Of a DNA stretch of 64,000 bases, positions 53,778 to 54,615 are shown in pieces. Both the position numbers and the translations under genes were made by a program. Origin of the DNA: Escherichia coli (GTDB taxonomy: Bacteria; Pseudomonadota; Gammaproteobacteria; Enterobacterales; Enterobacteriaceae); NCBI RefSeq assembly GCF_013122565.1, contig NZ_CP053258.1; one strand, written 5' to 3'. Position 1 is the first letter of the stretch. Each line of letters opens with the position of its first letter. The notes beneath the pieces are model-generated. The model was not told the DNA's origin. It saw only the letters and a program-made list of their open reading frames with translations, and searched no databases.

Positions 53778-54089
53778 ATGCCTGGAAAAACAGCCACTCT
53801 ACCCGATGTCGATAAAACGCTGAAAAATGCGCGGGTTGAACTCAAAACCAGTCCCGACGCCAAAAACAGACTTCGTGAAGCTGCGCAAGCCGTTGGGTTA
53901 GATTTAAGCGCCTTTATTTTGAGCGCTGCTATGGAACGCGCCGAAAGCGTGCTTGATAACCAACGTCGCCGTGAGCTTTCGAATCAAAGCTGGGAACTGA
54001 TGAACCAACTCATCGCCGAACCTGCTCAACCGACGCTCGCACTCAAGGCGTTAATGAAAAGGAAAAACAGCGATGGTCGACAAGCATGA
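53778..54089 (+). CDS. type II antitoxin, DUF1778 (ribbon-helix-helix, TacA/AtaR-like), 103 aa
   Basis: Internal start of ORF 53712-54089 with good SD; MPGKTATLPDVDKTLKNARVELKTSPDAKNRLREAAQAVGLDLSAFILSAAMERAESVL... resembles DUF1778 antitoxins partnered with GNAT toxins; stop overlaps the next gene by 17 nt. Family assigned from memory, no search run. Confidence 0.75.
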   Translation: MPGKTATLPDVDKTLKNARVELKTSPDAKNRLREAAQAVGLDLSAFILSAAMERAESVLDNQRRRELSNQSWELMNQLIAEPAQPTLALKALMKRKNSDGRQA

Positions 54090-54615
54090 AGAGATTACTC
54101 TGCCCATAGTCCTCTCCTGTAATTATCAGTCTGATATTACTTATCCTGGGCAAAAACAGTTTGATTGCGGTAACCCTGTTATCGATAAATTTGTACGCAC
54201 ATCGCTAAAGAAAAGTGTGCGTAATAGCGACTGTGCGGCTAAAGCACTTATTGACAGACAAAGTGGTGAACTGATTGGCATCTGTACTTTTACGGCATAT
54301 TCGCTGGAAAAACAACGCGTTTCTGGCGTCCTTCAGGGTTCACAGCCTTCAGAGATTGGTGTTGTCAGATTAGTCATGTTGGGGGTGGCGCGGAAGTATC
54401 AAAAGCGGGGCTTTGGTCAGGACCTACTATGTGATTTTTTTGAACATGTAAAAATAATTCACCAGGCATTACCAATTAAAGGGGTTTATCTTGATGCTGA
54501 CCCTGCCGCCATTAACTTTTATGCTCGTCTCGGCTTTGTTCAGCTTTCAGCGACACCAAATGCTTTTGGTGCTGTACCTATGTTTTTGGCGATTCAGCAT
54601 ATTCTCGCGGCTTAG
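54073..54615 (+). CDS. GNAT-family acetyltransferase toxin (TacT/AtaT/ItaT-like, predicted aminoacyl-tRNA acetylating), 180 aa
   Basis: Acetyl-CoA binding motif A (VARKYQKRGFGQDLL = R-x-x-G-x-G), conserved FDCG N-terminal motif and NFYARLGF motif B; translationally coupled to the upstream DUF1778 gene. The specific named family member is not recognised. Confidence 0.75.
   Translation: MVDKHEEITLPIVLSCNYQSDITYPGQKQFDCGNPVIDKFVRTSLKKSVRNSDCAAKALIDRQSGELIGICTFTAYSLEKQRVSGVLQGSQPSEIGVVRLVMLGVARKYQKRGFGQDLLCDFFEHVKIIHQALPIKGVYLDADPAAINFYARLGFVQLSATPNAFGAVPMFLAIQHILAA

Follow-up and report, generated by a model that had tools for sequence, protein, structure and literature searches.

The described system closest to the locus studied here is ItaRT of Escherichia coli HS (locus EcHs_A0501 in the paper; ECD_00377-00378 in BL21(DE3)), and Wilcox et al. 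noted that BL21(DE3) carries a virtually identical pair (PMC6125619). Expressed alone, ItaT halts the growth of E. coli MG1655, co-expression of ItaR rescues it, and the two proteins make a stable complex (PMC6125619). ItaR and ItaT together, but not ItaR alone, repress the promoter activity found on an upstream fragment of 172 bp (PMC6125619). The toxin adds an acetyl group to the isoleucine of Ile-tRNAIle and causes ribosome stalling at Ile codons (PMC6125619). Ile-tRNAIle, Val-tRNAVal and Met-tRNAMet have all been reported as substrates, in vivo and in vitro (PMC7367177). In the same structural work, a hydrophobic pocket formed by V36, I37, F40 and M102 was found to select the aminoacyl side chain, Y150 was identified as the general acid, a basic patch (K39, R42, K46, K47, R50, K80 and R82) as tRNA-binding and L133 as a dimer contact, and toxicity was lost in Y150F, G115D and V36/I37 mutants (PMC7367177). 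In a 2022 paper in NAR, ItaT was assigned to clade B among the GNAT toxins (PMC9177977). Ribosome profiling in that study showed pausing at Ile codons and pointed to Ile-tRNAIle, mainly the GAU isoacceptor, as the primary target in vivo; peptidyl-tRNA hydrolase (Pth) was found to counteract ItaT, its overexpression rescuing growth (PMC9177977).

Here we analyzed a 64-kb stretch of an E. coli chromosome, called the window throughout, in which an earlier note had read a pair of genes as a type II module, with a DUF1778 antitoxin and a GNAT toxin that acetylates charged tRNA. This general reading is supported by our analysis, and the assignment can be taken further. Judged by sequence, the locus is almost certainly a chromosomal itaRT operon of type II, which would encode an Ile-tRNA-acetylating ItaT and a neutralizing ItaR and whose promoter would be repressed by the ItaR-ItaT complex.

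The gene pair and its counterpart in E. coli HS

The list of open reading frames and the translations confirm the layout given in the earlier note, a 103-aa antitoxin gene followed by a 180-aa toxin gene with an overlap of 17 nt (54073-54089). The acetyl-CoA motif is likewise intact, as had been stated: residues 110-116 of the toxin read QKRGFGQ, in agreement with the GNAT motif Q/RxxGxG/A. HMM searches, proposed there as a check on the two domains, matched the antitoxin to Pfam TacA1/DUF1778 (PF08681, E=2.8e-17) and, more weakly, to a NikA-like ribbon-helix-helix family, and the toxin to the GNAT families Acetyltransf_7, Acetyltransf_10 and Acetyltransf_1 (E=1.6e-7 to 1.9e-5). The coordinates of these genes and of the features around them are collected in Table 1.

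Table 1. Features of the itaRT locus and its surroundings, in window positions.
Feature	Position	Strand	Description
cyoE terminator hairpin	53609-53632		
Islet with itaR, itaT and the Sel1-repeat gene	53637..56002	.	~2.4 kb, strain-variable, between cyoE and yajR
Palindrome 1, ATACGGCTAATAACCGTAT	53651..53669	.	Extended arms 53647-53673; abuts the -35 hexamer; candidate ItaR/ItaRT operator
Sigma-70-like promoter, candidate PitaRT	53673..53701	+	TTGACA, 17-nt spacer, TAAATT; 10/12 consensus matches
Palindrome 2, ATACGGTTGATAGCCGTAT	53706..53724	.	Extended arms 53703-53727; directly 3' of the -10 hexamer; candidate second operator
itaR	53778..54089	+	103-aa ribbon-helix-helix/DUF1778 (TacA1) antitoxin; ATG start
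itaT	54073..54615	+	180-aa GNAT aminoacyl-tRNA N-acetyltransferase toxin; ATG start
Sel1-repeat (TPR-like) gene	54671..55606	-	311 aa per RefSeq; convergent to itaT; the ORF list extends it to 55666

Seven nucleotides 5' of the itaR ATG lies a Shine-Dalgarno-like AAAGAGG. A longer antitoxin reading frame of 125 aa, starting from TTG at 53712, was dropped; the 103-aa form was chosen because of this Shine-Dalgarno sequence, the RefSeq annotation of identical loci and the published mass of the antitoxin. The masses calculated for the window proteins, 11.4 kDa for the antitoxin and 19.8 kDa for the toxin, are those that Wilcox et al. 2018 reported for ItaR and ItaT (PMC6125619). In a public collection the exact antitoxin and the exact toxin were each found on at least 1000 contigs, so both can be taken as real genes.

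When the PDB was searched with the toxin, chain 7BYY_A matched at E=1.6e-117; the alignment spans residues 1-180 and shows two substitutions, T43A and G115D. The entry is ItaT(G115D), whose G115D change was engineered into the acetyl-CoA loop and inactivates the toxin (PMC7367177). We made a direct comparison with the E. coli HS chromosome (NC_009800), in which the toxin proved identical to genomic ItaT at 179 of 180 residues, with T43 in the window and A43 in HS, and the antitoxin identical to ItaR at 101 of 103, with R31 and L41 in the window and K31 and V41 in HS. From the stop codon of cyoE to that of itaT, promoter included, 1003 of 1022 bp are the same (98.1%). The window and HS also share the 17-nt overlap and the gene order: cyoE, itaR, itaT, a convergent Sel1-repeat gene and yajR. 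The earlier note had not recognized the toxin as one of the named members; with these identities, at the orthologous chromosomal site, the toxin is ItaT. ItaRT is already known and well characterized, and the copy in the window is a common natural allele at its usual site.

We give almost no credence to the alternative that the pair founds a new, unassigned GNAT/DUF1778 subfamily with a tRNA target not yet known. It could draw on the low similarity of the toxin to AtaT-, KacT- and TacT-type structures, and on database labels that are generic only: RefSeq names the proteins 'GNAT family N-acetyltransferase' and 'DUF1778 domain-containing protein', and NCBIfam lacks models specific to ItaT or ItaR and holds no curated model naming the pair, returning only MobA and RelB for the antitoxin and MshD and PaiA for the toxin, all far under their cut-offs. 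However, the near-identity of both proteins to those of HS at the same chromosomal site, together with the match to 7BYY, refutes such a subfamily, and the targets of ItaT are published. With names as generic as these, a reader or a pipeline easily mistakes ItaRT for an unassigned module. PADLOC gave no match to ItaR or ItaT, and for the Sel1 protein only a meaningless weak one, which leaves a catalogued anti-phage defence system without support.

Functional residues and the allele in the window

All residues to which a role in ItaT has been assigned can be followed in the window protein. V36, I37, F40, M102, G113, G115 and Y150 are present, and a comparison of the translation with the published residues (PMC7367177) shows that K39, R42, K46, K47, R50, K80, R82 and L133 are present as well. 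The window ItaT is thus predicted to be, very likely, an active toxin that prefers Ile-tRNA. The earlier note had left tRNA specificity and activity open; both have been published for the near-identical HS protein (PMC6125619, PMC7367177, PMC9177977).

The steps of ItaRT action were shown for the HS proteins, and we infer their transfer to the window allele from the near-identity of the proteins and from the conservation of the mutagenized residues. On this basis ItaT would act as a dimeric GNAT enzyme, with Ile-tRNAIle as its main target and Val- and Met-tRNA as secondary ones. The acetylated tRNAs would be unusable in elongation, ribosomes would stall at Ile codons and growth would stop. ItaR, a predicted ribbon-helix-helix/DUF1778 protein, would bind ItaT and neutralize it, and the ItaR-ItaT complex would repress its own promoter. 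This repression may operate through two ATACGG-N7-CCGTAT palindromes around the -35 and -10 hexamers.

The few substitutions relative to HS could in principle matter. Residue 43 of the toxin, a threonine here, lies on helix alpha-1 near the basic residue R42, between F40 of the pocket and K46, and a small effect of T43 on substrate preference is conceivable. A stronger proposal is that the allele is inactive or shifted in specificity, with T43 in ItaT, or R31 and L41 in ItaR, altering toxicity, target choice or neutralization. The position of residue 43 beside F40 and the tRNA-binding residues R42, K46 and K47 would suit this proposal, and several positions vary among natural ItaT alleles. However, A-to-T, K-to-R and V-to-L are conservative changes, both reading frames are intact, and every residue tested by mutagenesis is conserved. 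The exact T43 allele is also widespread, being found on at least 1000 contigs, and with both reading frames full length nothing points to decay. We consider an inactive or shifted allele very unlikely, and the reading of the window ItaT as an active, Ile-preferring toxin is the one that we retain.

Promoter, palindromes and the surrounding islet

Upstream of itaR a sigma-70-like promoter is bracketed by two palindromes that share the pattern ATACGG-N7-CCGTAT. This pattern occurs twice in the 64 kb, against 0.08 occurrences expected by chance, and both copies are at this promoter. Counted from the itaR ATG, the published 172-bp fragment, from -183 to -11, would map to about 53595-53767, a segment that includes the promoter and both palindromes. 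Only two bases differ between the window and HS in the promoter region, both outside the palindrome cores. The cores are invariant in six E. coli loci; since the whole 197-bp upstream region is ~99% identical across these six, the invariance is uninformative on constraint. By their position, the two palindromes are candidate operators of the ItaR-ItaT complex, and a pair of palindromes laid out in this way is as expected for the operators of a ribbon-helix-helix antitoxin. In the text of Wilcox 2018 (PMC6125619) the words operator, palindrome, inverted repeat and footprint are absent. A literature search found no mapped ItaR operator, and the palindromes were not found in the ItaT papers searched. 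They are the only addition, a small one, to what is known of ItaRT, and they offer a direct and cheap test for the itaRT operators.

The window is collinear with the chromosome of K-12 MG1655 from position 500499 down to 438679, at ~98-99% identity. When it was compared by megablast with K-12 430000-515000, all that remained uncovered was one 53-nt gap and the islet that carries itaR, itaT and the Sel1-repeat gene. This islet is absent from K-12, where ~98 bp of cyoE-yajR spacer correspond to the ~2.4 kb of the window. Homology to K-12 ends just after the cyoE terminator and restarts at the ribosome-binding site of yajR. The GC content of the islet is ~45%, against ~53-55% in its flanks, and no convincing direct or inverted repeats, which would be a sign of a mobile element, were seen at its ends. 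A very AT-rich spacer (55600-56000, 30-36% GC) between the start of the Sel1 gene and yajR makes up the right end of the islet. There is weak similarity between the last ~60 bp of this spacer and the promoter region of yajR in K-12, so the right edge may lie at ~55950 rather than at 56002.

Two further intergenic segments of the window stood out in the comparison with K-12. The 53-nt stretch without a megablast match (2523-2575) lies between the homologues of adk and hemH, where K-12 has 157 bp (497821-497977), a small intergenic replacement. Elsewhere, a segment of ~140 nt (10328-10465) also matches, at 83%, the intergenic sequence between yajD and tsx in K-12 (430956-431093), and is presumably one of the REP/BIME-type repeats that are dispersed through intergenic DNA.

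With at least 80% coverage required, 1367 of 5426 complete E. coli genomes contain the itaRT module. About a quarter of the complete genomes thus carry it, the B/BL21 lineage among them, and K-12 is without it. When the module plus its cyoE-side flank was used as the query, 3180 places were matched, all of them chromosomal save one on a plasmid. The B-lineage strain B95.deltaA is among the carriers, and its Sel1 gene occurs in BL21(DE3) too.

The protein encoded convergently to itaT has three Pfam Sel1 repeats (best E=2.4e-6), and RefSeq labels its gene either 'tetratricopeptide repeat protein' or 'SEL1-like repeat protein'. Its N-terminus, MLTKRILFSLMLIVSPGVVA, looks like a signal peptide. 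By the same coverage threshold the Sel1 gene is found in 1357 complete E. coli genomes, against 1367 for itaRT, and the two are nearly always inherited as one islet. That itaRT and the Sel1 gene function together as a unit of three genes, with, for example, a secreted or periplasmic Sel1 protein tied to the activation or the purpose of the toxin, seems to us improbable. The constant Sel1 neighbour and the candidate operators are minor leads only. As a discovery the locus carries little weight, ItaRT having been known genetically, biochemically and structurally since 2018.

Comparison with other GNAT/DUF1778 systems

The remaining question is how the module stands to the other named families. 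It encodes a GNAT-fold toxin with an acetyl-CoA motif and a DUF1778 antitoxin whose gene comes first in the operon of two genes, and both proteins are homologous to solved chains of KacT/KacA and of AtaT/AtaR type; on these grounds it is assigned to the GNAT/DUF1778 superfamily. Within the superfamily, its protein sequences make it ItaRT and not AtaRT, KacAT or TacAT. The earlier note had proposed a comparison of the toxin with AtaT, ItaT, TacT and KacT, which separates them clearly: beside the E=1.6e-117 of the ItaT entry, the other families match only at E=2e-6 to 6e-4, with ~27-30% identity. The closest solved relatives of ItaR are KacA (5ZGN_A, E=3.5e-11, 35% identity) and the antitoxin 6AJM_C (32% identity). 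We take the entries 6AJM, 6AJN and 6GTS to be AtaT/AtaR structures and 5FVJ to be TacT.

AtaRT of E. coli O157:H7 resembles the window pair in having a DUF1778 antitoxin gene first and a GNAT toxin gene second, and in acting by N-acetylation of aminoacyl-tRNA. Both proteins are recognizably homologous to those of the window (toxin E ~2e-6, antitoxin E=8.4e-9), but the toxins are only ~27% identical and the antitoxins 32%. AtaT also falls into clade A, whereas ItaT is in clade B (PMC9177977). Unlike ItaT, AtaT prefers Met-tRNAfMet in vitro and shows a Gly bias in vivo (PMC9177977).

KacAT of Klebsiella pneumoniae (5ZGN, 5XUN) likewise consists of a homologous GNAT toxin and a DUF1778 antitoxin, and KacT served as the molecular-replacement template for the ItaT structure (PMC7367177). 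However, the similarity of its toxin to that of the window is weak (E=2.8e-6), and KacAT belongs to another species and another locus. TacAT of Salmonella Typhimurium shares the superfamily and the mode of action, and PF08681, the family matched by the window antitoxin, is named after TacA; yet TacT matches the window toxin at only E ~6e-4. TacT is reported to be specific for Gly-tRNAGly in vivo, a preference for Gly that TacT3 and AtaT2 have as well (PMC9177977). The two systems differ, finally, in what the toxin does to its own antitoxin: TacA is acetylated by TacT, whereas ItaT leaves ItaR unacetylated (PMC6125619).
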